A DNA stretch of 64,000 bases from Bilabrum cf. latius (taxonomy: Eukaryota): NCBI GenBank assembly GCA_965178125.1, contig OZ237760.1, forward strand, positions 682,001 through 746,000, written 5' to 3'. Each line of letters starts with the position of its first letter. The stretch's first letter is position 1. Under the pieces are notes generated by a model that did not search any database, was not told the DNA's origin, and saw only the letters and a program-made list of their open reading frames with translations. Below, piece after piece: positions 1 to 64,000 of this stretch. A program made the translations under genes and the position numbers.

Positions 1-2805
1 CGCAGCTGCCGGTCGAGTCCACGCAAGGAGACCCGGCTGCGCCCACGACGACGAGGAGGACGCCAAGCCAGCGCCGGCCCGCCCGTGCCCATGCATGTGG
101 TCCATGAGGCCGTGGCGCTGCTTGGGCGACGGCTGCGCCCTTGCGCCCCGCCTGCCCTTATCAAGCGAAGCCGCGGCCGACGGCGCTCCGTCGCTGCCAG
201 ATGCAACTGATCCAAAGGCTGGGGGATGGGAGTGCAGCTCACCGTTCAGCTCCCGGGAGAGCCCTTGAGGCTCCGGCGAGCCCCCGCCGCTCGCCATCAC
301 GGCCCCTCCTTGCCCCTCGCTACCCATCTCCAGGTCCTCCACGACGATCCAATCGGCCCCTTCTGGCACCTCGTCATCCAGAGTGGCCACAGGGGAGGAC
401 GCCAGCTCCAGCATGAGCCCACTCGATGCGGCGTGGAGAGTGTTGGGGCGCCGTGGTTCCGTGGCAGCGGCGCCGGTCCCGATGAGTGGGGGTCGGTGAC
501 CGGCGCGGTGGCCCGGAGTGTGGGTTCCGTGGTGGTGATCGTTGAAGTCCCCCGCGCCTGCCCTCTCCAGCAGCAGCTGTCTCGGCGAGAACGGGGGCAC
601 GCCTGCGATACGGGCGCAGAGGTCCAGCTGCTGCCACACCTGGGCTCCAAAGTGCTGCTAGCACAGCCTGCTGTCCGCACCGGGCCCGTTGTCCAGCCCC
701 TTGCTCCTCGGAGGCGACCTCAGTCCCAGCCCGCTGAGATGTCTTTGCTCCTCACGGTACTCTGTGAGGAGGGTCCCCATAGCCGTGCGGGCCGCTTGCA
801 CGCACTCAACCGCGGTCTGCTGCAGGTGCATTCGGTTCACCTCAGACATGCCCTTTCGCTTGAGACCCTGCTGCAGCGAGTACGCAGCTCGCACCGCCGA
901 GTCTTGCGCCACCCTGCTGGCCATGAGCACCTGTTTGTCCACCCTCTCGAGCACCCTGTCCTCTAGAGCCAGTCCTGCGACTGACAGCGGAGCGCCGACA
1001 CCGGTAGACGAGAATGCCTGCCCGCCCATGGGCAGCTGCAGTCGGATACTGCCGGTGCTCGACCCATTTGGTGCGCGATACTGCCCCCCTTTCGCGCTGG
1101 ACGAGGTGCTGGTTGGCAGGGAAGCAGCCGTGGAGGCAGTCGTAAGGCCTCCGGTGGTGACTGCATTGGCGCGACCCACGTTGATCCGCAGCGCTGGCAC
1201 TTTGGAACGACCTGCGCCCGAAGAAGCAGCAGCAGCAGCAGCAGCAGCGACGGCTGGGGGGCGGCCTCCTCTCCCCGACTTCCCGGATTTGCCAGTCTTC
1301 CCGGCCTTACCGACGACTGCCCCCCCCTTGCCCTTGCCCTTGACGGTGCTCCAAGCAGAGCCTCCCCTGCCTCCCTGCTTGCGCCTGCTGCCGATCCCGG
1401 CGCTGCTGCGGCCGCTCCTGCGGGCGGCCAACCCAGCCGCAGCCGGTGGCGCGCCTGCTCCTGTGCCGTTCCACACGCCCGTACTTGCCCTCCCAGCGCG
1501 AGTTGGCAGTGACGGGGCCGCGGGACCTGCCCCTGAAACCAGCATAACTCCTGCCCCCGCAGCCGCACTCGCACCGACCACTGTTGTCGCGCTGGCTGCA
1601 GCCCTCTACTCCGCCGATGCCGCCATGAGTTCGCCGATTTCAGGGACGTCGCCGTGCGCTGACCCCGCGCTGGCCGACCTGTGGTTGTACCCGGTTCCAT
1701 TCCTTGCGCCTCCACCGCCCCTACCTCCTCCTGACGGTGACAGCCGCAGCACGCCAGTACCCAGTGGCGGACCCCTGGTGAGCGGCCTGCCCTCCACCAT
1801 CTCGATCAGCTCGTCAGTGCCCGTGTCTACTTGCCCTCGGCCCCTGCATTCTGCCGCGCGCTTGTGCAGCTTCTGGATGTACTTTTGCGCGTGCGTGCGG
1901 ATCTGCACGACGGACCTGGTTGGTACCAGGCCCTAGATCTGCTTCCAGTCCTTCCCGTAGGTTCGCAGGCCCTCCACGAACGTATCGTGCTCCACATCAC
2001 CCCATCGCCCCGTGGCCGAGCCACCCCCGTGTGACGACGACGACGACGACGAGGAAGCGCCCGATTTCCCCCGGTGCCGCCCGCCCCCGCGGCCCCGTGA
2101 CCTTCCGCTGCCGCTGCGCCGACCCCCCGCATCCCCGGAACTTCCACCGCGACCGTCCATCCCTTCCCTTTCTTCCTCGTCGCCCTCGTCCTGCAGCAGG
2201 CTCGGGGGCACTCGAGTGGTGGCGCGCGAGGAGCGGCGGGGGGGCGCGCTGTGGCTGCCGGCTGGGTGTGACGAGTGTAATGGGCCGCTCTGCATGCCAC
2301 CGGGTGCAGTGGCACCAATGGGCGGGTGGGGGTGGCCAGCGGAACCGGCGCCGCGCGGCAGGGACAGGACGAGCTTGGGGGCGGCGCCTGGCTGGAGCGC
2401 ATGCGCTGGGACGGGAGGCACCTGCGACAGGCCGTGCCAGCTGGATGTAGTGCCGCCATTGCTACTCCTTGTGCTGGTGCTTGAGCTGCTGCTCGTGCTG
2501 GTTCCAGGCGTGGTAGCTGCTGGAGCGACCGAATGCACGTCTGGCTCGACAGGAGTGCTCAGATTCGAGGCGCTTCCTTTCGGGCTGGTTTTTCCGCTCG
2601 AATTTTCCGGTGAGAGTGTGCCAACCGAACCGGCCATTGTGTCGCTTTCAGCAATTGCTTTGCGCTAGTCGGCGGGTTTGCCGGAGCTCCCATGTTGCTA
2701 TCTGCCCTGCAGCACATGCTAGACTGGCTGAATCCGCCCGGCTGGCACGGACGGCATTGCATGGCCATTGTTTGGAATCATGCCAGTCCACTCCATATTG
2801 TCCAT
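1..2805 (-). CDS. Myb-related (SHAQKYF-class) transcription factor; 3' end runs off the window
   Basis: One frame joins ORFs 2719..2931, 1933..2637, 1606..1908 and 658..1581 through TAGs at 2719, 2698, 2666, 1933, 1606 and 658, and stays open to base 1. The Myb domain reads GRWGDVEHDTFVEGLRTYGKDWKQI[TAG]GLVPTRSVVQIRTHAQKYIQKL. ATG 2805 is preceded by a CGCAG acceptor-like site, so small upstream exons (e.g. 2963..3006) are possible. Confidence 0.88.
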
Positions 2806-3791
2806 CCTGCGATGCGGGGTGAGAGCGATAATCGCACAGGGGTGGAGGTAGCAGAAGTTTCCTTTTTGCGGCGGTTGCTGCCCTTTGTGAAGGAGCCCTC
2901 GCGCTCGAACGGCTCGAAAGAACAGAAGCAATTCGTGCTAAATCCATGTTTATCGAGCTCACCAGACTCCTTGGACGCTTAGCAGGTCGCAGGTGCGTGT
3001 ACGAACCTGCGAAATGGGGGAGGAAGTAATCACGTCAACAGGTACTACATAGGGCACAGCGTTGCAAGTCCAGTTTAAAATACTCTGCAAACCATTTTCA
3101 AGCCAGGCGTTATGGAACATCGACGCACTACTAGTGGTCTTGGATGCCTTCAGGTATTCCCAGCAGGTAGCAAGCCAGAGCATCACAATGCAGAGCTTCC
3201 ATTCGAGGATGCTGACATTCACAGAGACGAGTGTTAACGAATCGTCAACGACACGATGCAACGCCGTTGCAGCCTAGAAGGAGCGCCCATCTAGAAAAAG
3301 AGCGACTTCACAGTGAGTCCTACCGAACACACTGCCAGAGCACGGGGCCATATACCAGCTTTTCAAGCATAAGAATGCGGCGGCAGTTATTTATAAGTGT
3401 ACTTCACCCCAATCATACCGATTAAAGCGGCACTTCAGGAGGAAATGGCGCTATGTTGCAAGGTAACGCCAGTAGTAGGACCTGCTGCTCACCTTCCACT
3501 GCCTTGAACACAGAAAATTCAACAAAAGAGCCACTGCGTGTGGTCAACGATATCAGCTGCCCGTTCTATTCTAGAAGCCCACGATATACACGATAGAAGC
3601 GATGTATATCTGGTACGCAGCAGAATACTCGAATGACCCGGGCCTTCGCAACTTGCGACCAAACCTGCGACTGATCCGATCACAATCAGTTACAACCGCT
3701 AGCGTATCCGTTGTTCGAACAGCAGCTACAGGTCCAAATTAGTCCATCAATCGCTACAACTTATTTTTTGTCGTAAAGTGTCAATGAACGT

Positions 3792-6700
3792 ATGGACAGG
3801 AGTAAGTCTAGACGAATAAAACGCAGGAAGGAACTCAGAAACCTGTTGAAGAGTGGCGTAGCTGGTGGATGGGAGCAAGATGAAGGAATTGTTGCGCTAG
3901 TTGAGCAGTTTCGAAGGTCAAAAAGAGGGAGGCACATATACCAGGCACCAAATCTGGATCACCCGGCGTTTCGTGATTGGTCGAGGACGGTATCGAGCGG
4001 GCGAGCAGGGTCTGCTCTGCAAATGAATGTAGGTTAGCCAGTAGAAGAGGCCAAGAAACCAAGTAAATTGCATGCTACAGAATCAAAACGGTCGCAAGCT
4101 ACTGGGAGCTAGCACGAGTCCCGAAGCGCTGTCGCTGATTCGGTCTGGAATCGTCTCTCTCAGGCTGACCCCAGAAAGCAATCAGACCTTGCGAAAGGTC
4201 GAGCAGCTCTCATGCGAGTCACGGCCCCGAAGCCTCCTTCCCGATCCGCTAGACGACGGGTGGGTCGGATTCACAAGGGCAGGTATCGGCGATCGAAGAA
4301 GCGAGGAAGTTACAAACAGTCCGCTGCGAACCCTTCCGTGGACGGGGACGGGATCATCGACCTGCCCGGTGTGACGATTGCGGAGCTGCGGAGGAGGGCC
4401 GCCCTGGCGCTGCCCATCCCGTACGAGCAGCGCCTGCGGGAGAGGCTCAGGATCTCTGGGTTTCTAGAGGGAGACAGGCACATGAAGTGGAGCACCAGCC
4501 ACAACGGCGGCGAGGAGGAGGTGGAGGGGGAAGGCCTCGGGGGCGCGGGCCCAGGCCAGGGAGTGAGGCTGAAGGGGGTGTCCTATGATAGCGTGGGTAG
4601 TAACGGGAGCGGGATAGGATGGGTCTCTTCCTCATCCGCATCCCGCGGCCGTGGCGGCAACGAACGTTCGTCGAGCGCGGCGGCGTGGAGCCAGGCCGCA
4701 GACAGCGAGGGCGTGGTGTGGCTGGCCAGGCAGGGATCCAGGCCCCAAATATCGATCTCCGGAGGTGGAAAAGAAGACTCGCGCAGGGTAGGCCGGCGGA
4801 CTGGGGGTTTGCGCGGTGCCGGTAAGAGCGGAACAGCCTTCCGGTTGGACGCGCACAGCTGGGTGCGGCAGACAGACCAGATTGGCAGGGCAGGCTCGGA
4901 CTCACCCTCGCCAGATGCATCACACGGCGGTGCAGGTGCTATTTCCAGCCTGGGTGCATTCCCGAGCGAGACGATCCGATCTGTGCGGCCGGGACTGGAG
5001 CTGCTACGGGAGGACGACGAGGTGCGGCGGCGCCGGCTTGGGCTGGACTGGGGCGAGCGCCGCCGTGCAATGCACCTGGGGCGGCGGGACGGCTCTATGT
5101 CCCACCATATCCGGGGAGGTCACAAACCGGCCCTGCCTCCGCGAGTGGCGGGGATGAAGGCGGCGCTGGCGAGGCTGGCTGCAGCCTCGTAGAAGCGGCC
5201 CGGACCGGCGATCGAGGCGGCGCGCCGCCGGTGGCTCGCCTGGAGCAGAAAGGAGAGAAGGAGGAAAAGGCAGGCGGCCAAAGGCAAGCAGTGGGTGCAG
5301 ATCAACCGGCGGGCCGTGCGCGCCGCCAGTGATAGGCTCTCTGCCTGGAGACGACACAGCCTCGCGCTTGGGGGGCAGCTGGACCGCCGCGGGCTGCAGT
5401 CTCTGGGACTGTGGGCAGGCGACAGTGCCGTGGGTCAGAACGGTGGGGGCCATGCTGTCCATGACTATTCCAGCAGCTTGGTGCCCGGCGGTACCTGGGA
5501 CCCTACGACTGCACGCGGGGCGGCAGATCCCGTGGACCTGCGGCCGTTCTCTAGGCCCAGCACAGCGCCCTCCCCCTCCTCGTCCCCTTCCCCCATGCTT
5601 GGATGGGGAGAGGGAAGGGGAAGGGGAAGGGGAAGGGGAAGGGGCGCCGATGACGGTGCGGAGAAGGGCGGAGGTGGTACCGTGTAGTGGGCAGGGAGCA
5701 GCCTGGTCGGGTCAGACTGGGAGCAGGAGGAGGATCTGAGGCCCTTCTCGGACGGTGACGAGCCTTTGGGTGCGTCTGGCAGAGCCAGGCGGCGGCGGCT
5801 AGGCAGCGGCGCATCGTCAGCAGAGGAGGAAGAACAAGTGGAAGGTTAGCGCGGTAGGCTGGAGACCGGGGGGCTTGGCGGTGAGATGGGGCTGGTGTCG
5901 ATACGAGACGACGACGATGTTATCCTGTCCGGTTCCGAGGCAGCTGCAGGGGGCGAAGACCGTCACGGTGAAGCCGCAGCCACCGCTGGCCTTGATGCAG
6001 CTGGTAGCAAGCCCTCAGTCACATTTTCAATCGATGCAAACAACGTATCGAGCAAGCCGCAGGGCAGAAGCCGAAGCGGTGGACAATTCAGGCGAGGCGC
6101 AGGGGCGGCCCACGTGCCGTCAGTGTCGTCAATGTAGGTAGGGAGCGAGCGTGGGCCGCCCGGACAATTTCTGAACGGGGCTGATAGCGTGGCAAGCAGG
6201 AAAACCACTGATTTGGGTGCGATTCCCATCACTCCGATGGACAAAGTGCAAGCGGCACAGGCGCGCCTCCGGAGGGTGGCTCCAGTGCGGGAGAGGGCAG
6301 CGGCCATCCAGAGGGAGAGGATGAAGTCTCGGATCGAGCAGGCCAAGTGGACCATGGGCAGGGGTAGGCGCAATGCGGAGCGACGCGCAGAGCAGGAGTA
6401 TCGCATGTAGCGGCAGCGCGCCTGGATCAAGCTCGTGACCGTGCTCACCTTCCTTCGCCACACGGCCCAAGCCGCCGAGCCGGCCCTTGCGGAGGCTCGG
6501 ACGCTTCGCATCATGGAAAAGTACGTGTTCTTGATCCAGCGGACGGTGCGCAAGTACGCTCGCAGGATGAAGCAGAAGCTGCAGAAGGGAGCGTGGGTAC
6601 GGCAGAGGCAGCAAGCGGCACATCTCATCGCGAGATTCCTCAAAGACCACAGCGGCTTGCAGCAGGGGCTGGCGCGGTACGTGACTCTGTTCCGAGGGAA

Positions 6701-9700
6701 GGTTCTTCACGTGCAGAAACTCTTCCGGGGATACATGCAAGTGACAGAGGGCAGGATGAGGGCCCTCGCAGTGACCTTCGATGCCATGGTAGCCGAGAGG
6801 TTCTCCCTTCAGGTAGAGACCGCCAGCAACTAGTACAAAGCCCTATTGCACCAATACCAGAGGACAACGCTTGGAGATGCGCTGCGACGCTCCCAAAATG
6901 ACCGAAAACACCGGCTGCAGCTCATGCGGGCAGGTAGGCTTGGATGGAGGGGCATACTGCTGACCGCGGCTGAGCGCCTGTACGGCGGCGAAAAGTCTGC
7001 CAAGCAGAAGATGCAGGCCGCGGCAGCTTCCGCGCTTGCCATGCGGAGGCGTGCCGAGGCCGTGGACGAGCAGGAGCACGAGCGGGAGAAGGAAGTGCAG
7101 GATGCGTACAGGGCCACCAGGGTGCAGCACGCCGCTCTCCTCTCGCCAGGGGTGTCAGAAGAGACTGGGTCGCATGCAAGCACTGCAGTGGACTAGCTCC
7201 TTGGCGGGGGCAGCGCGCAGCGTGGCGGATTCTCAGGTGCTGGCGATGCGGTGGCATTGAAAGGCCGCCAAACCATGGACATGGGTCGCTTGATGCAAAC
7301 TGCAGCGGCGCAAGCCGGCCTGCATCACGTTGCGTTTGGCTTCGCGGGCGGCGGGCACGACGGGGAGGTGGAGCAGGCAAAGCTGCGAGACAGGGCCGCT
7401 CTGGATGCTCTCTCGATGCAGTTTTCGGATGCACAGAGGCTTGTACTGAAAGACAGGACCCATCGGCCGGCAGGGGGCCTCGTGTCACAGCTAGCGGACT
7501 CGTTTGCGACCACACCAGATGGATCGGTCTCGGTGAAGGCTGGCACGGTCGATGCAGAGCGAGCGCAGCTGCTCAAGCTCTTGATATCCAATAGGAAGAA
7601 GTATGGCATCACCGGGAGGCAGCTAAGCGCTCTGCAGGCCGAAATTGCTGGGGGCATGACCGGGAGACGAAGGGCCCCAACAGGCGGAGGCAGCGTCGGC
7701 CACCCCGGTGAGGCAGTGCCGCCTCCGGGCAGCCCACCCACCACACCACCTCGCCGTAAGGGTCTGGGTAAGGGGCCTAGGAGAGTGTCCATGCTAGGCT
7801 CTGGCGGCGCACTGGATGCAATGGTCAAGAGAAGGAACACCGCAGGCAGCAGTAGGGCGGCAGGCGATGGTGAGGCCGGTGGGCTGCACAGCGACAACTC
7901 GTCGAAGCCAGAGCCGCCTCGGCGGCCGATGCCCCCACCAAGGCGCCCAGGCGGAGGGCTGATCCTACCACCACTCGTCACGGAGAATCCGAACGAAACT
8001 GCATCTTCAGAGGCCAGCTCCATGCCGATTAGCGCCAGGACTGGACTCGGCTCCTCTCCGCCGCCTGCAACTGACCTACCGAAAGACGGCACTAGGACCT
8101 TCCAACTGAGCTCCAATGTCAACTCAATGAGTTGGAAACTTGGAGGAGCAGCACAAGGGCATATCGGCAGGGATGCTGTCCCCACGCCACGTATGAAGCA
8201 TCCGGCGACTGCTCGAGCAGCTCCTATCGGCGGCGGCAGCCTGCTGGGCACAAAGTCGCCACCTCGTCCCCACGCGCCGCTGTCGGCGCGCAGGAGACAG
8301 CCAGGAAGCAGGATTCCAGCCGACTTTGGACGAATTGGGCCGAAGCGCAGGCGAAGAAGCAGCAGCACGCGCGGCCGCTCCACCGCTCGGAGCTCTGCGG
8401 GGGGTTAGCAGGTGTTCTGGGGGGCATCGGGTGCTGCAGGCAGCGCAACGTTTCGGTCGGGCTCCAGATCCCCTGGCTCTGAGGCCGGGTCCGAGGACTC
8501 GAACTTTTCCGCGAAGTTTCGCGGAAGGTTCTTGGGCACGCCGCGGGGTGGTGGCCGACGAGGAGTCGCATCGGCCCAGGTGGGGAGGCCAAGGCCTGGG
8601 GCAAGCCCGAGGGAGAGGCGCCGACGAGGCTCTGCGCAGCACAGCAGCCCGAGAGACGGGAGTCCCAGCGGCGGTCTGCTGGGGTAGCTCGGCGGCGGGA
8701 TTGCGGTGAGATCGAGGAGTAGATCCAGGTCGCCCCTTGGCAAGGGGGCTGCCATGGCGGGAGGGAGGAAGATCGCAAGGCCCAGACGAAACTCTGCCTC
8801 CTCTTTGAGCGGCAGATCAGCACGAAGCAGCAGCGGTGGTGATCGTACCATCGGCAGCGAATTGCCATCTCTGGGCCTGGAATCGATGCTGCAGTCCCAG
8901 CGGAAGATCGAGCGCCGGAAATTCCTGAGAAAGCGGGAGGGCCCAATCAGCCGAGCTGGGCTGGACTCCGACAGGCGAGAGAGCCGCGTGATCCGCGCGC
9001 TGGAACAGGGCAATGCAGACGACATCAGCACAGCGCTCACCGGTCTGCAATCGAGAGACACCACCGATGGGAGTGTGGATGAAGCCGGTACAGCAGGCCC
9101 AGGCAATGACGTGGATCTGACGGAACAGCTGGGCGAGGCGCCCACTGCTGCCGTGAGCGAAGACGGTGACGGGGTGCTCTTCGGTGACGGCGATGACGTG
9201 CACGGCGACAGCCTGCCAGTGCGCTCCACTACCGCTGCAAGATCGAGACCAAGGCCGCCCACGACCATCCGCAGAGTCGGCAGCGCATCGATTCCGCGGA
9301 CTACGCGGGCGTCCGATGTCAATGGGGCTGATGGCTTATACGATAGACACGTTATTGGGTCAGCGCGGTCACCGCTCCATGCCAGGCTTGGGTCGCAAGG
9401 CAGAGGTCGCGCGGGTGCTGGTGCTGGTGCTGGTGCTGGTGCTGGTGCTGGTGCTGGTGCTGGTGCTGGTGCTGGTGCTGGTGCTGGTGCTGGTGCTGGT
9501 GCTGGTGCTGGTGCTGGTGCTGGTGCTGGTGCTGGTGCTGGTGCTGGTGCTGGTGCTGGTGGTGCAGGGACCGCGGACCGCACCGCGGGCCGATCGCTTT
9601 TTATGCAGACCCAGGCCACGCCGCTGAGGAGGATCGGATCAAGGATTGCGGCGCGCACGGCTGACGTGGTGGGCGGCAGGTCGCGGCTGGAGGCGTTTGC

Positions 9701-11876
9701 CAGCGTAGTCGAGGGAGCTGAAGTGAGCGCCGGCTCTGCTGGTCAGGAGGCGGCCGCTGAGGCAGATCGTGCCCCGGCTGTTACGCCCTTTCAGCACTAC
9801 TTGGGTGGTGTAGGAGAGCGAATTGGCATGTCGGAGCAGGGTCGCAGGGCTTACGCGCGCCCGCACCTGGGTGGCGCCGGTGCCGCGCCCAACTGGCACA
9901 AGCGGAAGCGGTCAAAGTCTGGGCCAGGCGATGAAAGCGGGCCTGCCGATGCGGGTGAGCGCAAAGGCGGGACTGGGGGCACTGCTAGCAGCCGCCCGGG
10001 TACGACACCCGGTGGGACTCTTCACCTGGTGAGCCCTCGAATGGCTTCGAGGCACGGGCCTAGGACTTCCCAGACCCGCATGATGACTTCGATCCGGCTG
10101 GATCTGTCAAAGGTAGCCAGAACACGAGCATCATCCGACGCTAGTTCGCGAGGCAGTGAAGCAGGGAAGAAAGCAGGTAACGCAACCGTTGGGAACAAGC
10201 CAGGAAGTATGGAAGGCAGAGCACCGTCTGACGCTTCCCAACCGAACGGCGCAACCGCTGCTCCAAAGGGCAATACCTAGGGCAGGGCCAAGCGCTCCCG
10301 CAGACCCTCCTTCCGACCTCTCTCTATCCCGTCCGGATCCGACTCGGCTGCTGCTCAATCCACGCCGATGGTGATTCGACCTGCCACAGCCCGTGGCGCC
10401 AAGCCGTCCCCTAGCATCAGCCGCAGCGGGAGCCCCGCAACAGGAGCCAGGTCATCGACCGCAGCGCATTCGACTGTCACAAGCTCTGCAAGCGGCGTTG
10501 CCTAGCAGCAGGAGCAACAGCAGCAGCAACAGCAAAAGGGGGACAACGAGCAGTAGGACAAGGAAGCAGTCAAGTAGAGTCGGCCTGTGCAGGCCACGGT
10601 GCCGAATCCTGGTGCTGGCGGCAGGCTGTCTCCTCGCGGGTCCTTTGGCAAGCATCCACTGCGGCTGGGACTTGGCGGTAAGGCAGCCGCAAAGCACTTC
10701 ATGGACACGCACGTGACCATGTGGCAGAGGAAGGAGCTGGCCGAGTCGGAGGCGATGCGGCACGCGGCGGTCGCGATCACGCACAAGCTATCGTCAGGTG
10801 GCGTTGAAAAGAAGCATGGCCGCAGGAGTGCCGGCGGGAGAAGGAGCAGAGGCGACAGGAGACCCTCCGATTCGAGCGTGTCCACGGTGGGGAGCAGCCG
10901 ACCAGGCAGCCGAATGCACGGGCAGAGACACGCGGCAGATGCAGGCGGTGAGGCCGGGTAGTCTCTCATGTCCTTAGAAGGAGCAGTTGGATTCAACGTG
11001 GACGTGGAGGAAACAGAACCAGGAAGAGAAAGAGGTGGAGGCCAAGTTAAGAACAGAGTTGGTGGAAGCAAGGCTTCATCCCCAGCACCGGCCCGCAAGT
11101 ACAACGGGCGTTCCAAAACGCGCACAGCCCGCAAACGCTCTTCTGGCTCGAGCAGTGCATCAGACGCTGATGATGCCTCGCCGCCTGCCCATTCCGAGCC
11201 GCCCCCAGCCGCCGCCAAGCTTGTGGACCGGCTGGGCACGGTGGCCACGACCGGTGCTCTGTCTGGAGAGGCGCCCACGGGACAGGCCCTTAGGGCTTCG
11301 ATTCAAGACATGGCGCGGCGGGCATCGCCCTCCTTCGAACCGCCGACGGGGCCATTCTAGGCCGAGGGCCGCGGGTTCAGATCCCGGAAGAAGGCAGGCC
11401 GAAGTAATCAAAACAAGACTTGGTCTGAACGATCCGGGATACTCGCGGAGCACATTCTGATGACCGCTGCCCGTCTGCCCCCCAACATGAGACCGGCAAT
11501 GCCCGATCCTGACTTGCGGCGGGCCATGCTGCGCGCGATGGTGTCTGCCATGCGGGTGAAATTCCGCGCGCGGGAGCTGCCGCACTGGCGCACTGGTGCG
11601 GCGGAGCGGTAGCTGGAGGCGATGCAGATCAGGCTAGAGGATGCCAGGCAGATGATGAAGATGAGGAGTGATGACGAAATGGCGCGCGCGGTAGCCGCTC
11701 GCTTTCTGTCGGCGCAGGCAGCCAGGACCCGACCCCCTGGGATGGTGATGGGGCTGAGAGACCGGGAGAAGCTGCACCGCTTCATGCTGCCCTTCCTTGA
11801 CAAGGCGTTCGAACAGGCGACTCTCTCAACGATGATCAAAGCGGCGGCGGGGAAGGGAGTGGAAGATCTGAGCTGA
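3792..11876 (+). CDS. Large (2694 aa) low-complexity protein with IQ-like calmodulin-binding motifs, function unknown
   Basis: Thirteen listed ORFs (3792, 4212, 5295, 5886, 6189, 6435, 6846, 7251, 8412, 8706, 10587, 10968, 11622) share one frame. They are separated only by TAG (18 counted) and end at TGA 11874-11876. IQ-like motifs LIQRTVRKYARR (~6531) and VQKLFRGYMQV (~6711) lie in a helical region. Confidence 0.8.
9414..9560 (+). repeat. (GGTGCT)n hexanucleotide microsatellite, ~24 perfect copies, encoding poly-(Gly-Ala)
   Basis: Directly visible perfect tandem repeat inside the 3792..11876 frame. Confidence 0.97.
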
Positions 11877-12010
11877 CTGCCGTTGATGCAGTGGCGTGCG
11901 CTTTTTTTCTTTTTTTCTTGCTTCATGTGTGCGACCGACCGTTGATTGACTGTTTTGCCTCTCCTTCTCGATCTCGGCAAGGCACTGTTCCTGTACTGCA
12001 GTGCTTCTCC

Positions 12011-15000
12011 ATGGAGAGCAAAACCAATGACACCGACTCAAATGTTGTTCACACGGATCCGACAATCATAACTGTAGTAGATGGCAAGAAGTACGTGTCA
12101 GGCACCTCGCAGGACGCGATCGCAGCTCCGGCCCCTGCTAGTTCCCAGCCCCCGCACACGACAAGTTCAGCGAAAGGAACCCCGCAATTCAATGGATTGG
12201 AGGGGCCAATCATAGCAGATCCTACAGACGATGATGATTCGGACGACGATGACGAGGAGGACTACGGCTGCGCCGACTGGATCCCATCGGTTTGCAGGTG
12301 CTGCGGAATGGACCTTCCAGCCCGACGGAGAGCAGCCACGCTAGAAACTGACGCCGAGACATAGGATGAGGGCGATATAAAGCCGGTGCTTGCGCATTCA
12401 TCTCAAGTTTCTCCAATCAGGCGGCGCCACCGGGCCAGCCGTACATGCTTGTTCTGGCACTGGGTGGGGCTGCGCCTTATTCTTGGCCCGGAGGCAGATC
12501 AGGTGCGAAGGCGGGCCTCAGCCAAATCAAAGTTTGGAAATTTGTTGGGCGCGTCCTAGGCCAAGAAGCCGAACGCCAGCGGGCCGTGCATGGGGTGGAG
12601 CTGCGGAGGTCTGGGGACCACTCCGCTGGCAGAACCGGGGGTGTGCTCAGTTTTGACCGCCATGCTCACTCAACTGGGGCCATGGGCCATCGTCGCCATT
12701 TTCCTTGCGAGCGCGTCAGGATTGGTCTGGTTGGGTGGGCAGGAGGACGGGAGGCCTCTCCTTCAGCTGAGGGAGACGGCGGGGTGGCAGTGGCTTGCAT
12801 ACCTGGCGGTTGTCATCGCGGTGGTGCCTGTGCTACGGGTGCTAAACAACGCGCTGTTCCTGTGCGTGACACTCACGTCCAGCACCTGCGGCTGCTTCCA
12901 TTGCGCGTTTCACATGGGGGCTCTGGATGGGCCCCTGTGGCTGGGGGCGCTATCGGGGGTGCACTGGGCGGCATGGAACCTGACCATCAACAGGGACATT
13001 GACGGGGAGGCGGGGGCAGGAACGGAGCGGCTGCGGGACAGGATCGGAACGCTGCTCGTGCTGTCTGCTCTGTACCGAGTAGCGGTAGGGGTGCTGCAGC
13101 GGGTTGTGAGGGGGGGCGTCAATGTCGAAGGGTTGGCAGCCAAGATCGAGCGACTGATGGGGTCCATGAAGGCCGTGAAGCGACTGACGGCAGCCGCAGC
13201 CAATTGCACAAGGGAGAGAAGGAAAGCAAGGGCGGCGAGGAGGGCCGGCGTAGGAGCTGTGGGCACAGCGCTCGGCTCAACGGCATCTCTGCCCCCCGAG
13301 ACCTGGAACACCAACCGAGCCAGCAGTCTCATGTACGGGGGAGGCGCAGATTCTACGCTCGGCTATTCCGGGTCTCTCGCCCCTGGCACGCACCCCGCCA
13401 GCGGGAAATACGGCGGCGGCGGTGTCCGCGGGCACCGCCGGATTCCAAGCGAGTGGCGTCAGCAGGAAGCGTCGCCGCCTCTCGTGACAGGGAGCGAAGA
13501 TGGGGGGCTGGGGCGGACGGCTAGAGGCGGCGGTGCGGACAGCAGCGCGATGGGGCGCGGCGTAGCCAGTGTGATGAGTGGGAGGGCCAGCGTCCCGCAT
13601 GGCATGGTGATCGGCAGCAGCGCCATTCCGCGCCCACTAGCGATGGCACCGCCCTTGGCGGTACCTGCAGCCGGCAGCATGGGGGCTGCCTCAAGCAGCA
13701 GCGACGCGCTTGGGGCGATCCATCCATCCCCTCGTCGGGCTGTTCCGATCCAACACGACCGAGCCCACATGGACGCAGACGCGCAATCTGATCTACCCCC
13801 AGAGGAGGGCGGCGATGCACCGCCACCCAGCGTTGCCTCTGCGGGTGCAACGAGCAGTGTCCAAGAAGTGGCACCGGCACCGGCAACGGCTCGCGCCGCT
13901 GCCAACACATCAGCTCGGAGCCACTGGGGCCAAGCAGAGCACCAAGAGCCCGATAGCGCCCCTACAGCATCGCAGCGGGCCACCGGCATGACTGCTGAGC
14001 TTGACGCTCCCATGCCGCCGCGGCTCCCTGGCAGCAGCCTTGGGGCCGAAGCGCCTGTTGGCGCACTGCCCGGGCCTCCAAGCGCCGGCACAGGCCACCG
14101 TAGGTACGTGTCTGGAAGTGGCAATACCACAGGCAGCCAGCAGTATGGCACTCGCGACTTCACGGGTCTCTCTGCGTTTGCTGCTGGCACCCCGGCTCCA
14201 GTGGGACAGAGCGACCACCATGACCCACCGCCCAGCGGTCTTCGCATCGACTCGACGCATGGAGGAACCGACAGGAGGCAATAGCACGGTCATCATTGCG
14301 ATCGGCAGCAGCATCAGCAGCGGAAGGTCTACCACGAGAGTCAAACCAGCGCATTCTTGCCCCGCCGTGCCAGCGGCGGCATTTCTCCCGGTTCGACTTA
14401 GGCACAGCTTGCGGGACACGACCAGCAGATGAGTCAGATCGGGAGCCGGGGAAGCACCTCAATTCGGCAGCCCGCCAGCATGCCCTCTGTGGATTCGCTG
14501 CAGCTGGCCACGCAGGCGGCGCAGACCGGTGACCTGCAGGGAGTGCTTCGCTTCGTAGTGGTGGACCCTGTTTTGGTGCAGCTGACCGGTGATTCGCTGG
14601 TAGAGGTCACCTCCGCCTCGCAGATGAGGAAGCTGGCCAGCGCGGCCTTCCAGAGGCTGGACGCAAGGAGAACGGGTAGGGTCTCAGAAGAGATGCTCAG
14701 GAGGCTAGGCGGGCTCGAGTATGCCGAGGCGGAGGAGTGCGTGCAGCTGATGGAGGCGACCGCAACCAAGACGTTCACCCGTCGGGACGCAGTGCTGTTT
14801 GCGAATCGCGTGTGGTCCGAATGGAGAGGGCTGTCGCTGACCATGCAGGGGTACAGCAGCGCCAATGACGCGATTCGTCTCATTGCAGAGGTGCTCTTCG
14901 TGGTGGCTCTGGTCATCACGGCTCTCGTCGTGTTCGGTGCGGACGTGGGGCAAGTGCTTTTGACGTTCGGCACGGTGCTGGTTTCGACGTCATTTGCCGC

Positions 15001-16972: not shown

Positions 16973-17175
16973 TCGCACGGTATTATCATTTTTTCCCCTT
17001 CAATTGGTTGGGATTGCACAGAGCACCCTGCAAAGTACAGAAAATCGGATTTTATTGTAACGTGCAGTCTCCAAACGGAATCTGTCGGTGATGAAGACAA
17101 AGCAAACGGCAACTGCTCGAACGAAGGGATCCTTTCCGGCAGTGGCAGGCAATCGTAAGATCCAAACCATCTGCG

Positions 17176-20761: not shown

Positions 20762-20792
<31 letters not shown>

Positions 20793-49800: not shown

Positions 49801-52800
49801 GATCACAGCGTTTTCGGCTCCGAGGCTGCCGCACGCTAGCGTGGCGTCAATCTTGGTCCCAGCCGATGGCACCGAAGGCTGCGATGGTGCATCCAACGTC
49901 AATGCCACGGGGCTTGGACTGCCATTCCTAAACGCAAGGCTCTTCGGCGGCGGCCGCCTGATCGCGGCAGTGACCCGTGATGGTGTTCGTTGGCTGGGCG
50001 ATTGCATGCGCAAAGCACTGCACACGCTTGACTCTAGCAACCATACGAGGTATGGCAGATCCGCAGCGTCCAGCAGCAAGCCTGGCTCCGGCTCTGCAGT
50101 CAGCGGAGACCTCAATCGTGCCCCGTCAAGGACGTAGGCTCCCCGTACACGAAGCGGCGAGGTGCCCTATGCCCCTGGGTTCGGTATGAACCGCAGGGGC
50201 CACGAAGACGACCACCACCTGCGAGCGGCTGCGTCCGACCGCGCGCTGTCCTTCTCCTCCCACGGGACAGGAAGCACCGCCCGGGATTCTCTGCAGCTCG
50301 ACGCTGCGGGGACCGTGATGGACGCGAGGGGCTCCGACGCATCCAAGCGGCAGCAACGTCAGCTGCCTAGCCCAGGTTCGGGTCAGCCTGGCCCCGGGAC
50401 TGGTCCCAGAGATCCGCAAGCACGACGGCCCAGCTCCTCGAGCAATGTGCTGGCCCAGCAGCCGCAGCAGCCCGGGCAGCACCAGAGGCGTCATAGCAGG
50501 GCAGACACGGATACTGGCAGTAAACACTCCAGGAGGCCTTCGGAGCTATCACGGCCGGCCATCCGGCGCAGTGGTGGGCCGGGCGGAGGTGCAGGCGGAG
50601 GTGGCAGCAGCAGCAGTCGCCCTGTGCTAAAGAGCTCAAAGTCGCTGCGCCTGTCTCGCAAACCAGGCGCCATGGCCAGGCGTCACCTTGCCCATTTGGC
50701 CATGCAGGGCGCAGGAGGGCCTGACCCCAGGGGCAGTGTCATGCCCCCATCCGTGCAGCCCATGCAACCACCGGTGCTGAGCACTATCGCACAGAACCCA
50801 ACCGCGCAGCAAACTGGCAGTAGCACGCCATCTGTCAGGTCTGAGGTCCCCGATGCCCATACCGCTGGCGTTGCTGGTGAAGGTGCTGCGCAGGACGCTA
50901 CCGGCGCGGCAATGCCTGGCCTCCTCTCCGTTGAGAGGGCCCCAACAGGCCAGCCGCACCGGGGACCTCTGGCGAAGCGCGCTGCCAGCCCTCGCTCGGT
51001 GGACAGCTCGACGGTCGCAGCAGCAGCCAAGGACGGCGGCATGCCCGAGCAGAAGGCTGCTTCAAGCCGCTCTCTTCTGGTCGATGCCGGCGGGCTGCAG
51101 GCAGACAGCGGCGCTCTGGAGCTGTGTGGCATGGCTGCTGCTGTCGGCGCCACCCTGTCGGCAAGGTGCAACCCCGTGGTGCTCGCTGCCGTGTGCACCG
51201 CCGTGGATTCGCAGGTATTTGCCAGGACGGCGCCGGGGCCCGACCCGCTGCAGCTGGCTCGGTCGGCCCTGGATCTTGTGTCTGCCCAGCAGGGGGGCTG
51301 TGCCTGCCTTGGAGTGGTGGGCAAGGAAGCGTGCAAGTACCTGCTGCAGCTCACCGGCTCCGTGCTGCCGTCCAATGGGACGGGGTCCTGGCTGACTGAA
51401 CCCCTGCCGGGTCCCAGTGCCCATGCCCAGCGCAGATCCGCTCTGGGATCCCGAGTGCGTGCGGCCGCATCAAGAGAGCTTGGATCCCTTGGTAGGTTGG
51501 TTGGATTCTCGGCTGGGGCCAGAGACGTGCTGGCCAACCCGCCGAGCACGCGCGCGATCCTGTCGAACGCCGCAAGGCGCATGGCCAGCGCGGGCGCGGG
51601 CGCGTCCGACTCGAGAACTCCCGACACAAGCCCGGCCAAGGCACCTGCCGCCCCCGGACCGCCGAGGTCCGGTGCGCTCGTCACACCGCAACAGGGGGTA
51701 CCCGGTGGCTTTGGTCATTTCAGGGCGGGAGAGGAAATCCTGGCCAAGACGCGCTTGCTGGACTTCAGGCAGCAGAGCCAGGCCGAAGACCGCGTGATGA
51801 GGACGATTGGGTACGAGGGCACGCTGGGTGGGGCCGTGGCGCGTGGTACTGAGTCGCTGCGAGCGGTGGCTGGGGTCGGAACGGGCGCCGTCAGCCCGTT
51901 CTCCGACAGCCCCTCTACACACGGCACTCCTCCCGCGGCCTATCTGCGGGCCCTCATGCCCGGATTTGGACCCATGGCCACGGTACAGGACCGGCACAGG
52001 GAAGAGGCCCTGGCGAGTGCGATCCTGCGGCAGAGGCAGCACCAGCTGCTGCAGGGACACCTCAGGGCCGTCGACAACAGGTCGCACTCGCCGCCCCGAA
52101 GTGGGGGTGGGGCGAGCGGCGTGCTCGGGGAGAGGGCCCGGTCCGTGTCGGTGGCATCTACGCAGAGCGGGGCTGCTCGGGGCGGCAGACCAGAGCACCG
52201 CACCTCGGCCGAGCGGGCCCGGAGCGGCATCAGCGAGATGTACGGCAGGCAGCACATCCACAGGTGCGGCTTTGAAGTGCCGCTCGTGGCCGGGCTCTCA
52301 GTGGCCGGTGCCTGTGCCGCTGTGCTGAGCACGCTTCTCGCCAGCATCCGCGCTGGGACGGGCGAGTGGCCCGTGAGAGCGTGCCACTTCCATACGGAAG
52401 ACGCGGGATCGAGCCCCGCCCCGAGCCCCGCCGGCATGAGCGCTCCATCTCCCGGGCCGCGGCGGCGCGATGTGGCCTGGTTTTCTCTTCTGCACGCAGC
52501 GGCCGGGACCGTGTCTAGGACCAGGGGCACCCTCGGGCTGCAGCGGCACCAGGCGCGGGCGATGGCAGAGAGGAGAGCAAAGGAGCGAGCAAGGGAAGGT
52601 GCGGGGATCGGCGGCAAGGGGCCTCCATCAGCAAGCAGGTCGGGGCAGGCTGGTACCACTGACCCCGCCGCCGCTTAGGCCCGTGACAAGCGACCTGTTA
52701 CGACCCGTGCCCCCTCGCCGAAGCGGGGCTCCTCTTCGACCAGGCTGCCAATTTGCATCTGTGTGACCTTTTGCAGGGTCACCAGCACGGCCCCAGTCAA

Positions 52801-55800
52801 CACGCCGCGCCCGTCCTCCAACCGAAGACTTGGCTCCTCTGTTGCTGTTCCCGACGCTGAGCGCGAGGGTAGGCCGGGTCTGACGGGCCAGTACGGGGAC
52901 ACATCGGCCTGGGTGGAGCTGTGCACGATGCCGCTGGGAGTTTGGAGGCCTTCGCAGTGGTCGCAGTACGCGAGCAAACAGCAGCAAAGGAGGGCGGCTT
53001 CCGGCGAGCGATCCGCCGGTGGCGCGCAGGAGACCAAGGAGGGTGAGGGCGAGGCTGAGGACGCATTCACCGCGGCGGTGCGTCCTATCCACGACGAAGT
53101 GGCCAACACGCTGTCCCCTGCCAGGCTGCGGTTTGCGGGCCAGTCGGCATAGGCCGGCACCACTCCGCTGGCGGGCTTTGAGCTTGCGCCCGGCCAGTTC
53201 GACGAGATCAGCTTGCCGATCGTGGCCACGTCCGGGCTGGGCATGAGCACGAGCAGCAGCCCGCCGGTCGGCCGCAACGCAGGAGCCTCTGGCGGGCGCG
53301 GCGCCAGCGATGCCCACACGATCGGTAGGTTGTCCTCCTTTGCGCCCGAGGCTCTGCGTACTGCCGAGTCGGTTCGAGTGCCCGAGTCCTCGATCAGCGG
53401 GACCGCTGGCGGTCAAGGATACGCTTCGATTCGACCTGGGACTGTGGCGTGGCCGGCAGCGAGCGTGCAGGCAGTCGTGTCTACGATGCTTCGGATGGTC
53501 GCAGAAGAGGCAGCCAGGGCAGCGATGGTGAGGCCACAGGCGCCCCTGTGCGTGTCACCCATGGCCGACGGTGAGCCGAGTCGGCTGCGGTTCCGCTCCG
53601 TCCGCTCGTTTGTTCCCCAGGGCCCGCACAGGCAGCTTCTGGAGCACGAGGATCCGGTGGGTGCAGACCTGCTGCCTGCCGTGATGACCGTGCACACTGA
53701 CAGGGGCTGGGCGGCCGTGGCGCAGGCCGCCGTGCACCCGTGCTCGCGGGACATCAGCAGGAGTCGGGGCGACGGCACGTTCCATGCCTCGCTGTCCGGC
53801 ATGGTGACTCTGCCGGAGCAGGACACGCACCCGCCCACGTTCCGGCAGGACACGGCAGGCACGCAGGCCGATCTCTTCCAGGTTGCATGCTGCGGGGGGC
53901 AGGGCTTCGCCATCGCTGCTTCCAAAGCGGTGGCGGGTCAGTGCCAGGCGCAGTTGCAGCACGAGTGGGGCTCTTGTGCCAGGGAACAAGCCAGGGAACA
54001 AGGAGGTGCGCCGGACCTGGCAGGAACGACAGCGGGTACAGGCGCAAGCACAGGCGCGGGCGGGCCAGAGGCCAACCCGGAGCAGCCACCCATCCGCGTG
54101 TCGCTGTGCGGGTCAGCCATGGCCCCATTCGCTGTCAGAGGGAACGGCGGCTCACCGTCAGGGATGTCGTCACCGGCCCCAATGGCAAGCCCGGGGGGGC
54201 AGCATCGGCAGGCGCCGTTCCGAGGCGTGGCATCATCGTCGACGCAGTGCGGGTGCTTCGTACATGCGGCGCTGCGGGTTGGGAGCACCGCTCCGGACCT
54301 AACCTGGAAGCAGCAGTACGAAATGCAGCAAGCTCACAAGAGCGAAGATATCGCAACTGCTGGTGGGACCAATGCTGTCCCAGCCAAAGCAGGGGCTAGG
54401 CAGGGCAAGCCATTTCTCGCCGGAGGATCGGCGCATCGCTCTGGATCCATTGACCGAGGTGACCTATCCGTCGACCTTTGGCTGGTACCAGTGCCCATTC
54501 CCGCCCCGGCGAGCCAGAATGGGTCGCCCATGGGGGCCTCCGGTAGCATCGCGGTGGAATACGTGGCGCACGTGACGAGCACCTCCCGGCAACTCGCATC
54601 CAGCGGTTTGCATGCCGTGCAGCAGTGCGTGCAGGCGTCCTCCCTTGCTCTCATCAGAGAGGCCATGCTGTTGGCTGCGTGGGAGGCCGGCGTGCTGCTG
54701 CTGCCCTCGCCCGAGTTCTGGCCCAGGCTCATTGGGGTAGAGGCATCCGCCTCTGAGATCGACGGCTACCTGGTGCGCAACCTCAACACTATGCTGGCCA
54801 CACCCCCGCCCGCTGGGGGCACCGCCCGCGGGCATGGCACCGTGGTGCATCGCACGCAGGCACAGGCTGCCATGGAGCTTGCCTTGGGCACGGATGGTAG
54901 CGGGGATGGTGAAACTGCCGCCGCAGCAAATCATCATGCTGTCGCTGCCAGGCCCGCGATAGCATCCCCGTCAGGTGTCCGCAACAGCTCAGCGGGGGAC
55001 AGCGGCACGCCGCACTCCAGGCAGGGCTCGCAAGATGGTAGTCCAGTGCACGGGCGCGGCGGGGGTCCTTAGGATGTGCACGATGATGAGGAGCACGATG
55101 GTGGTGACCTTCTCAGCGCGCAAGAAGGTGCAAGGAGGAGCCTGAGGGGGCTGAGGCGGTTGCTGGATCCGCAGAGCGGCGTGTATGGGGCCGGCCGATC
55201 CATCCTGCTGCTTGCCAGCCTGGCTGCCAAGTAGAAGGGCAGGCGAGAGCTGGAGACACCGCTTCGGGCTCTGTGTGCTACGCTTCGGCTGCGCTCTCGG
55301 CTGCACGCTGGGGCGCAGCCCGCGGTGCAGTAGCTGGCCGTGCTGCTGCGGCTGGCTGCATCTACCAGTCTCGTGTCGGTGCGCGCTGGACTTGCCACCA
55401 ACGCCGCCCTGAGGTCCTGTGGGCCCAACTGGGTTGGTGCCAGGACGGCTGCTGAATTCCCGCTGCGGCCCAGCATCGTAGTGCTGCTCGTGCACGCCAG
55501 ACAGAGAGATCGGGCGCTGCTTGGCATTTGCTGCACCGATATCCCTTCCGGTGGTCGAGCCGGGAGCGCCAGTGGAGAAGCAGCAGGTGCGGCCCAAGGC
55601 GGCAGCAGCGCGCGGGGCACCACTCCGGTGGCCCCGCTGCCCCCACCTGATTTGCGGCTGTTCTCACTGGCAGCTCCCGGTTGGAGCCTACTGCGCGGGG
55701 GAAGCGCTGGAGAGTCTGGGGGTGGACTCACCGGCAACTGGTGGTCTGCGCCGCTGCGGATGCTCATGCCCAGGGAGCAAGCTGCAAGCAGCTTGGGTTC

Positions 55801-56059
55801 CTCTGGTGGCACGGCAGTAGGGGGGAAAGGTCTAGGCGAAGATTCAAGGGATGGAATAGGTGGTGGCGCGCAAGAAGCCCCCCAAGACGTTGCGAGGGCA
55901 TAGTTCGAGCAGGGCCTCGCCCTAGCGGTGCCAGGGTGGAACGGTGAGGGCGCTTGCAAGGAGCTGCTGCTGGACGAGGTGAGCAAGTCGCACTAGGCGC
56001 TGCTTGCTGCGATTGAGAGGGAGCGAGAGGCAGAGCAGGCTAGACGTGAGGAGCTGTGA
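37850..56059 (+). CDS. Giant uncharacterised protein, 6069 aa, single uninterrupted frame under TAG=Gln
   Basis: All of ORFs 37850, 38429, 38810, 39200, 39803, 40487, 41558, 41879, 42818, 43124, 45314, 45653, 46463, 47261, 48557, 48869, 49109, 50162, 52763, 53213 and 55340 share a frame. The gaps, read by hand, contain only TAG (about 42 in total). The first TGA is at 56057-56059. Confidence 0.82.
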
Positions 56060-56191
56060 GCCGGGTCAGGAATGACTAAGGATCCGATAGGCTGGGCTTG
56101 CCCTGTGAGAGTCTTGAAAATCAGTTCGTCTGTGACTTATATTTAATGTCATGGCGTTAGGATCACCTAATTTGCAGTCAAATTTGCCAAA

Positions 56192-57363
56192 ATGTTGAAG
56201 TTCAGCTGCAACTAGCAATGGGGCACTATCCGGGATCGCCCAGGGGAGTCCGATGGATTCGATTGCATAAAGCCCGCTGGAACGGCTGGCAGCGCTGCTC
56301 TGCTTGCCATCGGTCGCGCCCGCGCCTCTCGGAAGGGACTCTCGTCGAACAAATCTCCCGCTGGTGTGCATACGCTGGATACTGCGCTAGTCATCATGAA
56401 GGAGCTGCTCGACGCCGGTGCGGATCCGAACGCCAAGGGTTTAGTGAGAGCCGCGATTGTGCGAGTCTCAGCCAGACGTCATGCCAACAGTCGCTGCGTA
56501 CCTCGCTCGCTGACTGCACGCGTGCATCGGAAGCTTGCATCACTCTCCACTTAGTATTTTGCTTGCAGGACGGATCGCCGCCTCTCCACGCCTGCACCGC
56601 CGAGGCACACGAACCGCTGGCCCGGTTGCTGCTCGCACATGGAGCAAGTGCTCGGGCAAGCAATTCTCGGGGATGGACGGCCGCACACTTCGTGTGCTGC
56701 AACTCAGACGTGCACATGGCCGAAATACGGGGAACGAGCATTCTCCAGCTACTCGCAGATTACGGCGCTGATTTTGGCGCAGTCAACGAAACAGGCAAGG
56801 CGCCGCTCGATTACGTCATGAGGAGGAACGCCGGTTGCAACCCCGCCGTGCTCGCCCTCCTGCTACAGCCCTAGAGCGCGCTTGCAGACAGGCCCGCCCG
56901 GACCGGCTTGCCGTCATGGAGGTCGGACTTCGCCGAATACCTGGAACAGCTCATAAGGAAAGAGAAAGAGGCCGGAAAGCCGCTGCGGGAGGCCGGGCTC
57001 GTCATGGTGCCGTACGACGTGCGGGGGCCGGCCTTTGGAGAAGACATGGTGAAGAATCGCTGTGGATCGCAGGGACGCGATGGATGCTCTGGTGAGACAG
57101 GCGGCCAAAGGGGCCAACGCGCCTGCCCCATCGGAGGACGCGGCGGCGGGAGTCAAGGCCGCCTGGCAGCGCGCTTGGAGGCTGCGGCTCGGGGGTGCGC
57201 TGGGAGCAGGGGCCATCTTGCAGACCCAGCCGTACGATGTGCCCAGGTGGCTGCCGCCCTTTGCAGCAGCCCTGGCACGGCGCGGGGCCTCGGACAAGCA
57301 GCGGGAGGTGAAACAGTCGGTGCAGAAGGCCTTCCAGGAGTTCAGGCGGACGCACGCGTCTGA
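56192..57363 (+). CDS. Short ankyrin-repeat protein (intron 56444..56568); 3' end uncertain
   Basis: The spliced product reads IMKELLDAGADPNAKGL|DGSPPLHACTAEAHEPLARLLLAHGA...RGWTAAHF...LLADYGADFGAVNETGKAPLDY. TAGs at 56213 and 56872 are read through. After ~57060 the frame overlaps the PA200 fragment and no longer looks protein-like. Confidence 0.7.
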
Positions 57364-63800: not shown

Positions 63801-64000
63801 GCTGCACCCACTCGCCCTAGCACCAAGCCAACACGGGCACCATTCCAACATATCCAACCCCAATCCCATATACAAATACACAATCATATCCGCGACCAGA
63901 CCATCCAGCTATCCATCCGGGACTGCGGCAAGGCCACACCCGGCGGGCATGGTCGCAAGCTTAGCGCAGTCGGCTGAAGTCGGTAGATCGCGACTGTCGG
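57806..64000 (-). CDS. Multi-exon ankyrin-repeat protein, one repeat per exon; 5' part beyond the window
   Basis: Phase-0 exons flanked by CAG| and |GTGAG at 63645..63547, 63044..62946, 62375..62286, 61875..61777, 61204..61106, 60521..60432, 59855..59757, 59204..59106 and 58553..58455. The terminal exon 58366..57806 ends in TGA. Each exon is 99 or 90 nt, e.g. GQRTPLHVAAESGHADVVGALVAAGADVNAEDN. Confidence 0.85.
58955..64000. repeat. Tandem array of ~8 exon+intron cassettes, period ~510-675 bp
   Basis: Recurrent blocks (CAAGCGCACCCACCACGTCGGC, CCCAAGACACAAGCGCTCCTCGACCAC, CAGAGCATCGGCGCCGCGCAATCCAC). Exon-to-exon spacings are 651, 675, 674, 671, 509, 660 and 601 bp. Confidence 0.95.

Follow-up and report, generated by a model that had tools for sequence, protein, structure and literature searches.

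Does the codon TAG stand for an amino acid in the genes of this DNA and, if so, for which one? The question was raised by an initial annotation of a 64,000-nucleotide (nt) stretch of contig OZ237760.1 (positions 682,001 to 746,000 of the forward strand), which held that UAG alone among the stop codons had been reassigned, to glutamine (Gln). We refer to the whole of this stretch as the window and number it from its first letter. Its G+C content is 61.9%, and it carries a eukaryotic gene set, assigned by Pfam, in which the genes are long and intron-poor and the introns seen are 91 to 103 nt long, with GT..AG ends. We consider it likely that UAG is an ordinary but disfavored sense codon in this DNA, most likely read as Gln, with UGA as a terminator and UAA not used as sense.

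TAG is found in frame in most genes of the window

We counted codons in 13 gene models with a combined length of 17,663 codons. The in-frame stop codons were 95 TAG, 0 TAA, and 0 TGA, a mean frequency of about 5.4 TAG per 1000 codons. The initial annotation had spoken of about 95 TAGs in 10 genes on both strands. We also counted 95, on both strands, but the number of genes came to 9 of the 13 models, with the Myb and polycystin-type channel genes on the minus strand. We left out of the counts two TAGs lying 5′ of the start of an EFCAB10-like protein gene, in which no TAG was counted, and also the open reading frame (ORF) at 62074-63378 (2 TAG), because it lies inside a tandem repeat array. The TAG at 26286 was excluded because it falls within most candidate versions of the second intron of an ABCG transporter gene.

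Under the standard code, the long genes appear as same-frame pieces with nothing but TAG between them; once TAG counts as sense, the pieces become single frames of 6141, 2699, 1723, 1249, 983, and more codons. The longest is a giant orphan ORF of 6141 codons on the plus strand (37634..56059), which has 42 in-frame TAGs and no TGA or TAA before its TGA end. A low-complexity ORF of 2699 codons, here called big1 (3777..11876, plus strand), has 18 TAGs and likewise ends at TGA. Neither matches a Pfam family. The frame of an MscS-like channel (11801..16972, plus strand, 1723 codons; MS_channel_2nd, E = 3e-6) contains 10 TAGs, and a C2H2 zinc-finger gene (17095..19107, plus strand; zf-C2H2, E = 3e-28) contains 6; both end at TGA. 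On the minus strand, a SHAQKYF-type Myb frame that runs off the window start (1..2949; Myb_DNA-binding, E = 6e-11, amino acids [aa] 314-357) has 7, and a polycystin-type cation channel (PKD) gene with a TGA end (33641..37390; PKD_channel, E = 8e-27) has 2 in its C-terminal part, the codons at 34237 and 33733. The other TAG-bearing models are all on the plus strand. A full-size ABCG/PDR-type transporter gene (24869..29559; ABC_tran and ABC2_membrane) has five TAGs, at 25049, 25094, 27433, 28573, and 28870; a gene of unknown family (29902..31851, TGA end) has three, at 30736, 30931, and 31237; and an ankyrin-repeat gene frame (56080..57363, TGA end; Ank_2, E = 3e-9, aa 169-261) has TAGs at aa 27 and 265.

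The lengthening of ORFs is unconvincing by itself, because reading TGA as sense likewise lengthens ORFs in GC-rich DNA. We discounted chance merging because the asymmetry of the stop codons between the reading frame and the off-frames decides the matter. In the giant ORF, TGA and TAA numbered 75 + 12 and 105 + 12 in two off-frames versus 0 in frame, while TAG was about equally frequent in frame (42) and in the off-frames (45 and 55). We also scored the coding frame by codon usage, disregarding all three stop codons and training the model on five genes with homology support. The same frame was kept across 50 of the 58 inter-TAG segments that were 60 codons or longer (p ~1e-16 versus one in three). 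By gene, the frame was kept in 21 of 23 such segments of the giant ORF and in 12 of 15 segments of big1. In eight uninterrupted frames, 89 of the 90 TAGs lay 3′ of the first in-frame ATG.

Three TAGs lie inside Pfam-matched stretches, one each in the Myb domain (1935, aa 339), ABC_tran (25049), and ABC2_membrane (28870, in the second membrane domain of the transporter). The standard code would split the Myb domain in two and would fragment the ABCG protein both between and within domains. The initial annotation had placed TAGs within the Myb domain, an ABC nucleotide-binding domain (NBD), and the ankyrin exons. The first two placements stand, but the ankyrin TAG at aa 265 is 4 residues past the Pfam-matched stretch (aa 164-261) and not inside it.

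If C>T change had produced TAG from CAG, the same rate would also have turned some of the 195 CGA codons into TGA (about 32) and CAA into TAA (about 30); none was observed. The absence of these codons excludes DNA damage or a C>T process like repeat-induced point mutation. The base after TAG was distributed as it is after CAG (p = 0.90), and reading of the codon therefore needs no special sequence downstream. A seeming excess of C at that position (0.40 versus 0.26, chi2 = 10.65) vanished when TAG was compared with CAG or with all NNG codons.

TAG was not spread evenly over the genes. Its share of CAG + CAA + TAG was 0 in the genes for EF-Tu, the cytochrome b5-reductase fusion, the GH28 protein, and the EFCAB10-like protein; 0.03 in PKD, where the G+C content at third codon positions (GC3) is 0.80; and 0.09 to 0.16 in genes whose GC3 does not exceed 0.72. 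No TAG at all occurred in the genes most strongly biased in codon use. UAG behaves as a general but non-preferred sense codon. That TAG is a sense codon in this window, as the initial annotation proposed, is close to certain.

TAG is retained in transcript-like contigs

The window stretch is present in seven public runs from three studies, none of which has RNA on record as its library type. We compared the contigs of four runs (X1, X5, X6, and X7) over 17095-37094; run X8 contained next to no matching words. The X1 contigs gave an even cover of the whole interval and read through introns. The cover of the X5-X7 contigs was patchy and gene-shaped, with a depth of 0 over most of the ABCG gene and of 85 to 340 over the organellar EF-Tu gene, which had the highest contig depth within the interval. 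In X5 and X6 contigs, position 22537 was joined to 22641, and in X6 and X7 contigs, 29810 was joined to 29902; the X1 contig was continuous at both places. The stretches skipped are a GT..AG intron of 103 nt (22538..22640, plus strand), upstream of or within the cytochrome b5/b5-reductase fusion gene, and a GT..AG intron of 91 nt (29811..29901, plus strand) that precedes the gene at 29902..31851. From the patchy gene-body cover and the skipped GT..AG stretches we infer that the X5-X7 contigs are spliced transcripts.

Ten of the 16 coding TAGs of the interval were covered by X5-X7 contigs without a single difference, and none of these 10 was spliced out or altered. An X6 contig spanned 17112-18704 of the zinc-finger gene with 0 differences, including the TAGs at 17206, 17251, 17638, 17908, and 18016. 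X5 and X6 contigs likewise matched the window over 29902-31711 (3 TAG) and, in the PKD gene, over 33423/33376-37094 (2 TAG), again with 0 differences. The remaining zinc-finger TAG, at 18982, lies beyond a run of poly-Ala/GCN repeats (18705-18797) where the contigs of all runs break. The ABCG gene was almost uncovered in X5-X7; of its TAGs only that at 28870 was covered, at low depth and in X5. Independent runs from the three studies had identical sequence across kilobases. The initial annotation had suggested looking for TAGs retained unspliced and unedited in RNA, and this is what the intron-skipping contigs, whose library type is not on record, gave for the 10 TAGs they cover.

Placed genes end at TGA, and UAA is not a sense codon

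All 12 gene ends that could be placed were TGA, with 0 TAG and 0 TAA. This agrees with the earlier statement that every placeable gene end is TGA, apart from the number of ends placed, which had been given as 13. Homology fixes two of these ends. The EF-Tu alignment ran to the last of the 424 residues of the Cafeteria protein, with TGA directly after it, and the ABCG product aligned through the last residue of four homologues, with TGA immediately after. No conserved gene ending at TAG was found among the 12.

CAA makes up 24% of CAA + CAG (184 of 760). If TAA tracked CAA, about 30 in-frame TAA codons would be expected beside the 95 TAG, and 0 were seen (P ~7e-14). This count is not circular, because the giant, MscS, zinc-finger, and PKD frames have TGA at both of their boundaries. 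UAA is thus not a sense codon, and the claim that UAG had changed alone is upheld. The absence of UAA from the 12 ends is suggestive of disuse, although so few ends would not separate a rare stop from an unused one.

UAG probably encodes Gln

Most TAGs lie in low-complexity orphan sequence, and six could be aligned to homologues. Mapping of ABCG homologues onto the DNA gave an exon at 24869-25096 that carries the Walker A motif and Q-loop of the first NBD (NBD1). The TAG at 25049..25051 (plus strand) falls at the position of the Q-loop glutamine. In a MAFFT alignment this column was Q in 104 of 105 homologues and E in 1, with A, S, and L in none; by BLASTP, Q was present in 117 of 118 NBD1 matches and in 126 of 126 NBD2 matches. 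TAG 25049 is the most informative single site. Log-odds summed over the six columns placed Q first, 4.7 to 4.9 nats above E and further above the rest.

A second line of evidence came from run X5, in which two contig stretches (25998-26079 and 28826-28916) belong to a second, diverged, expressed ABCG copy. The 14 differences from the window consist of 8 synonymous changes at third positions, 4 residue-changing ones, and 2 exchanges of TAG and CAG: the TAG at 28870 is CAG in the copy, and the CAG at 26079 is TAG, which gives the copy an in-frame TAG of its own. The copy may represent a paralogous gene, another allele, or a different strain. The lone T>C change at a TAG goes along with other differences and therefore marks another gene copy, not editing.

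The sequence around TAG was also compared with that around other codons. Its Gln content and hydrophobic content matched those around CAA, and hydrophobic neighbors were fewer than around Leu (0.21 versus 0.30). Because of the Q-loop column and the two TAG/CAG exchanges, Gln is the best supported residue, on a small number of informative sites. UAG probably encodes Gln, as initially proposed, and glutamate (Glu) is the main alternative.

Weighing the alternatives

A number of observations weigh against UAG as an unambiguous Gln codon. Two concern the sense reading itself: the run records are silent on X5-X7 being RNA, with X6 automatically guessed as DNA, and for the zinc-finger or PKD gene taken alone, the standard code, with a later start or an earlier TAG end, leaves the Pfam domains intact. 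Many of the others bear on whether UAG might specify another residue, with Glu as the strongest candidate, followed by Ala, Ser, Thr, or Leu. The homologue column at 25094 is E 68, D 16, and Q 8 of 105; that at 28573 is R 21, Q 18, A 17, and E 15; that at 28870 is I 46, V 23, and L 8 (77 of 105), with Q absent among the eight commonest residues listed; and that at the Myb TAG (1935) is A 90, S 26, and Q 8 of 144. None of the four, all variable, speaks for Gln, and the column at 27433 is mostly gaps. Once the Q-loop column is removed, the log-odds leave Thr, Glu, Gln, and Ala inseparable. The constraint on Gln at the Q-loop may itself be relaxed, because Walker A of NBD1 (24905-24940) is degenerate, with Ser in place of the lysine present in 103 of 103 aligned homologues, and because Glu takes this NBD1 position in two fungal PDR pumps of solved structure, Cdr1 and Pdr5. 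The ABCG NBD1 is probably catalytically degenerate, as in the fungal PDR pumps, whereas NBD2 is canonical. The full neighbor-composition likelihood favors Ala or Gly over Gln, and Gln was best in 11 to 196 of 500 bootstraps, depending on the neighborhood size, so the context evidence is mixed. In addition, UAG is read as Leu, Ser, or Glu elsewhere, according to PMC11687900. On the other side stand the Q-loop column, with E in a single homologue and A, S, and L in none, and the lead of Q over E in the summed log-odds. Both copy exchanges are with CAG and not with GAG, GCG, TCG, or TTG, and the depletion of hydrophobic neighbors around TAG speaks against Leu. We regard a residue other than Gln as unlikely.

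UAG might instead be ambiguous, either as a stop or a readthrough codon depending on context or as a codon read by a near-cognate tRNA-Gln only, with no dedicated tRNA. Condylostoma and Blastocrithidia have context-dependent codes, according to PMC5304391, and the most biased genes of the window avoid TAG. The TAGs close to the C terminus in the giant (aa 6121 of 6141), PKD (1220 of 1249), and zinc-finger (630 of 670) proteins would be indistinguishable from stops. However, TAG is found at none of the 12 placed ends, the homology-fixed EF-Tu and ABCG ends included; inefficient readthrough cannot translate a frame with 42 TAGs; and the base after TAG is not special. An ambiguous code of this kind seems to us highly unlikely. 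Less credible still is a code in which both UAA and UAG encode Gln (NCBI table 6) and TAA is just rare through GC-richness. Such a code is by far the commonest eukaryotic stop reassignment according to PMC11687900 and PMC5304391, and TAA indeed ends none of the placed genes, but the complete lack of in-frame TAA where about 30 were expected leaves it with very little room. The last alternative is that the TAGs reflect artefact or decay. They could be errors of sequencing or assembly or products of C>T damage, could lie in pseudogenes or short introns, or could be restored to CAG by U>C RNA editing. The majority of TAG-bearing ORFs are long and of low complexity and have no homologues. Against this, the in-frame stops are exclusively TAG, the TGA and TAA predicted from C>T change are missing, kilobases are identical between independent runs of three studies, and TAGs are unchanged in the spliced contigs. 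The artefact or decay reading is close to refuted.

Other genes and sequence features

The exons of the ABCG gene were placed by homology mapping at 24869-25096, 25191 to about 26138, and about 26398-29556 (plus strand), followed by the TGA at 29557-29559; the borders of the second intron are ambiguous, and exons further upstream are unplaced. The first intron of this set, 25097-25190, begins with GT and ends with AG. Successive TAGs of the ABCG region, at 26286, 27433, and 28573, are 1147 and 1140 nt apart and delimit three ORFs under the standard code, all of them exactly 379 aa long. We take this equal spacing to be a coincidence.

Upstream of the ABCG gene lie two genes free of TAG, both of which end at TGA: the organellar EF-Tu gene (20527..21822, minus strand; GTP_EFTU, E = 5e-62) and the cytochrome b5/b5-reductase fusion gene (22641-24189, plus strand; Pfam Cyt-b5, FAD_binding_6, and NAD_binding_1). 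A GH28 polygalacturonase-like gene (31781..33259, plus strand; Glyco_hydro_28, E = 5e-35) also has no TAG and a TGA end. The sole Pfam match of the gene at 29902..31851 is below threshold, and the working label "LRR-like" that we gave it is without Pfam support. Within 31102-31768 the summed contig depth rises to 970 in X1 and 453 in X6, and at 31711-31742 many contigs break or continue unlike the window. The pattern suggests a dispersed element, present in many copies, that lies between the two genes there.

Three long ORFs of the window are without any Pfam family. The giant ORF at 37634-56059 corresponds to a very large orphan protein, and a search with its residues 1200-3300 against the shorter proteins in a collection of 5.8 billion gave no match at E ≤ 0.001. 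Inside the 2699-codon ORF, 9700-9900 is an (Ala-Gly)n coding repeat of about 30 units. At the end of the window, 58881-64000, a unit of about 650 to 680 bp is present in at least 8 tandem copies, which are 60 to 95% alike. The array has a strong positive AT skew and a negative GC skew, and ORFs in it such as 62074-63378 are probably spurious.

Host lineage

Two of the gene products have their nearest named eukaryotic homologue in the bicosoecid Cafeteria roenbergensis: the ABCG protein (38% identity across 94% of the query) and the organellar EF-Tu (75%). Unnamed environmental sequences were equally close or slightly closer. These matches are a weak pointer to a heterotrophic stramenopile as host. 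The b5-reductase protein gave family-level matches only and was uninformative on lineage. A search for close relatives in metagenome contigs with the PKD protein returned 583 pattern matches, of which 0 were confirmed. The recorded proteins of Cafeteria and of the environmental relatives are intact and full-length, which would fit a standard code in those organisms. The initial description of the host as a non-ciliate, GC-rich protist agrees with the GT..AG spliceosomal introns and with Cafeteria as the nearest named source for two genes.

Proposed mechanism and significance

We suggest that a tRNA-Gln with a CUA anticodon, one base from the CUG isoacceptor, would decode UAG and that eRF1 would no longer recognize it, as has been proposed for Iotanema. 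For the Iotanema factor, PMC5304391 proposes a T32G change in the GTS motif. ARAGORN found no tRNA genes in the 64-kb window, a search for Rfam families there also found none, and eRF1 was not among the Pfam-identified genes of the window.

A more specific variant is possible but doubtful. In it, the host would be a bicosoecid-like stramenopile in which UAG encodes Gln, UGA is the sole working terminator, UAA is neither sense nor stop (effectively unassigned), and eRF1 is narrowed to UGA. The eRF1 would then be as in the ciliates that read both UAA and UAG as Gln, paired only with a CUA-anticodon tRNA, and this state could be an intermediate toward that common code.

A full-text literature search, with most subscription journals outside its coverage, turned up no report that a stramenopile or bicosoecid has reassigned UAG in its nuclear code. 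Because that coverage is partial and the runs date from 2025, a published or upcoming description may exist. If the host is indeed a bicosoecid-like stramenopile, its altered nuclear code would, to our knowledge, be the first in that group. The type of code is already known; new would be its lineage, together with termination exclusively at UGA in this sample.

The host is GC-rich, intron-poor, stramenopile-like, and seemingly UGA-only, and genome and transcript-like data for it already exist. It would offer a system for studying how eRF1 discriminates UAG from UAA and would let one ask whether GC pressure, together with scarce UAA and UAG stops, opens a path to codon capture. For annotation the consequence is practical: long genes of this genome will be broken up by gene prediction that uses the standard code, which would affect 9 of the 13 models in the window.

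Comparison with known codes

UAA and UAG nearly always change together. PMC11687900 and PMC5304391 give few cases in which UAG changed by itself, namely those of Iotanema, a single rhizarian, Scotinosphaera, and some ciliates. The code described here is probably a further and independent UAG-alone case. The closest precedent is Iotanema spirale, in which UAG encodes Gln and UAA stays out of the sense set (PMC5304391). As in Iotanema, UAG alone would have passed to Gln in a non-ciliate protist. The two differ in termination: Iotanema stops mostly at UAA, whereas the ends placed in the window are 12 of 12 UGA and 0 UAA. Iotanema is also an anaerobic metamonad, and the host of the window has an organellar EF-Tu and looks stramenopile-like.

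According to PMC11687900, UAG alone is read as Gln in Protocruzia tuzeti and in two phyllopharyngean ciliate lineages. The code table is of the same type as here, NCBI table 15. Unlike those ciliates, the host has long, intron-poor genes, a G+C content of 62%, spliceosomal introns of about 90 to 100 nt, and best named matches from stramenopiles. Uncoupling of UAG from UAA is shared with three further systems, again as given in PMC11687900 and PMC5304391: the rhizarian exLh, where UAG alone became Leu; Scotinosphaera, where it became Ser; and the ciliate PL0344, where UAG is Glu and UAA is Lys. The difference from these lies in the residue, which is probably Gln here, to judge by the Q-loop column and the exchanges of TAG and CAG, with Glu as the less likely choice.

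The code also resembles those of many ciliates, Ulvophyceae, Hexamita, Streblomastix, and Amoeboaphelidium, in which UAG encodes Gln and UGA is the terminator; in those organisms UAA is Gln as well, whereas the window has 0 in-frame TAA against about 30 expected. Its difference from ambiguous codes of the Condylostoma and Blastocrithidia type is that TAG ends none of the 12 placed genes. Finally, TAG is also read as Gln in the code 15 of crAss-like and Lak phages, which have a suppressor tRNA of their own; unlike theirs, the genes of the window are cellular, eukaryotic, and intron-bearing.

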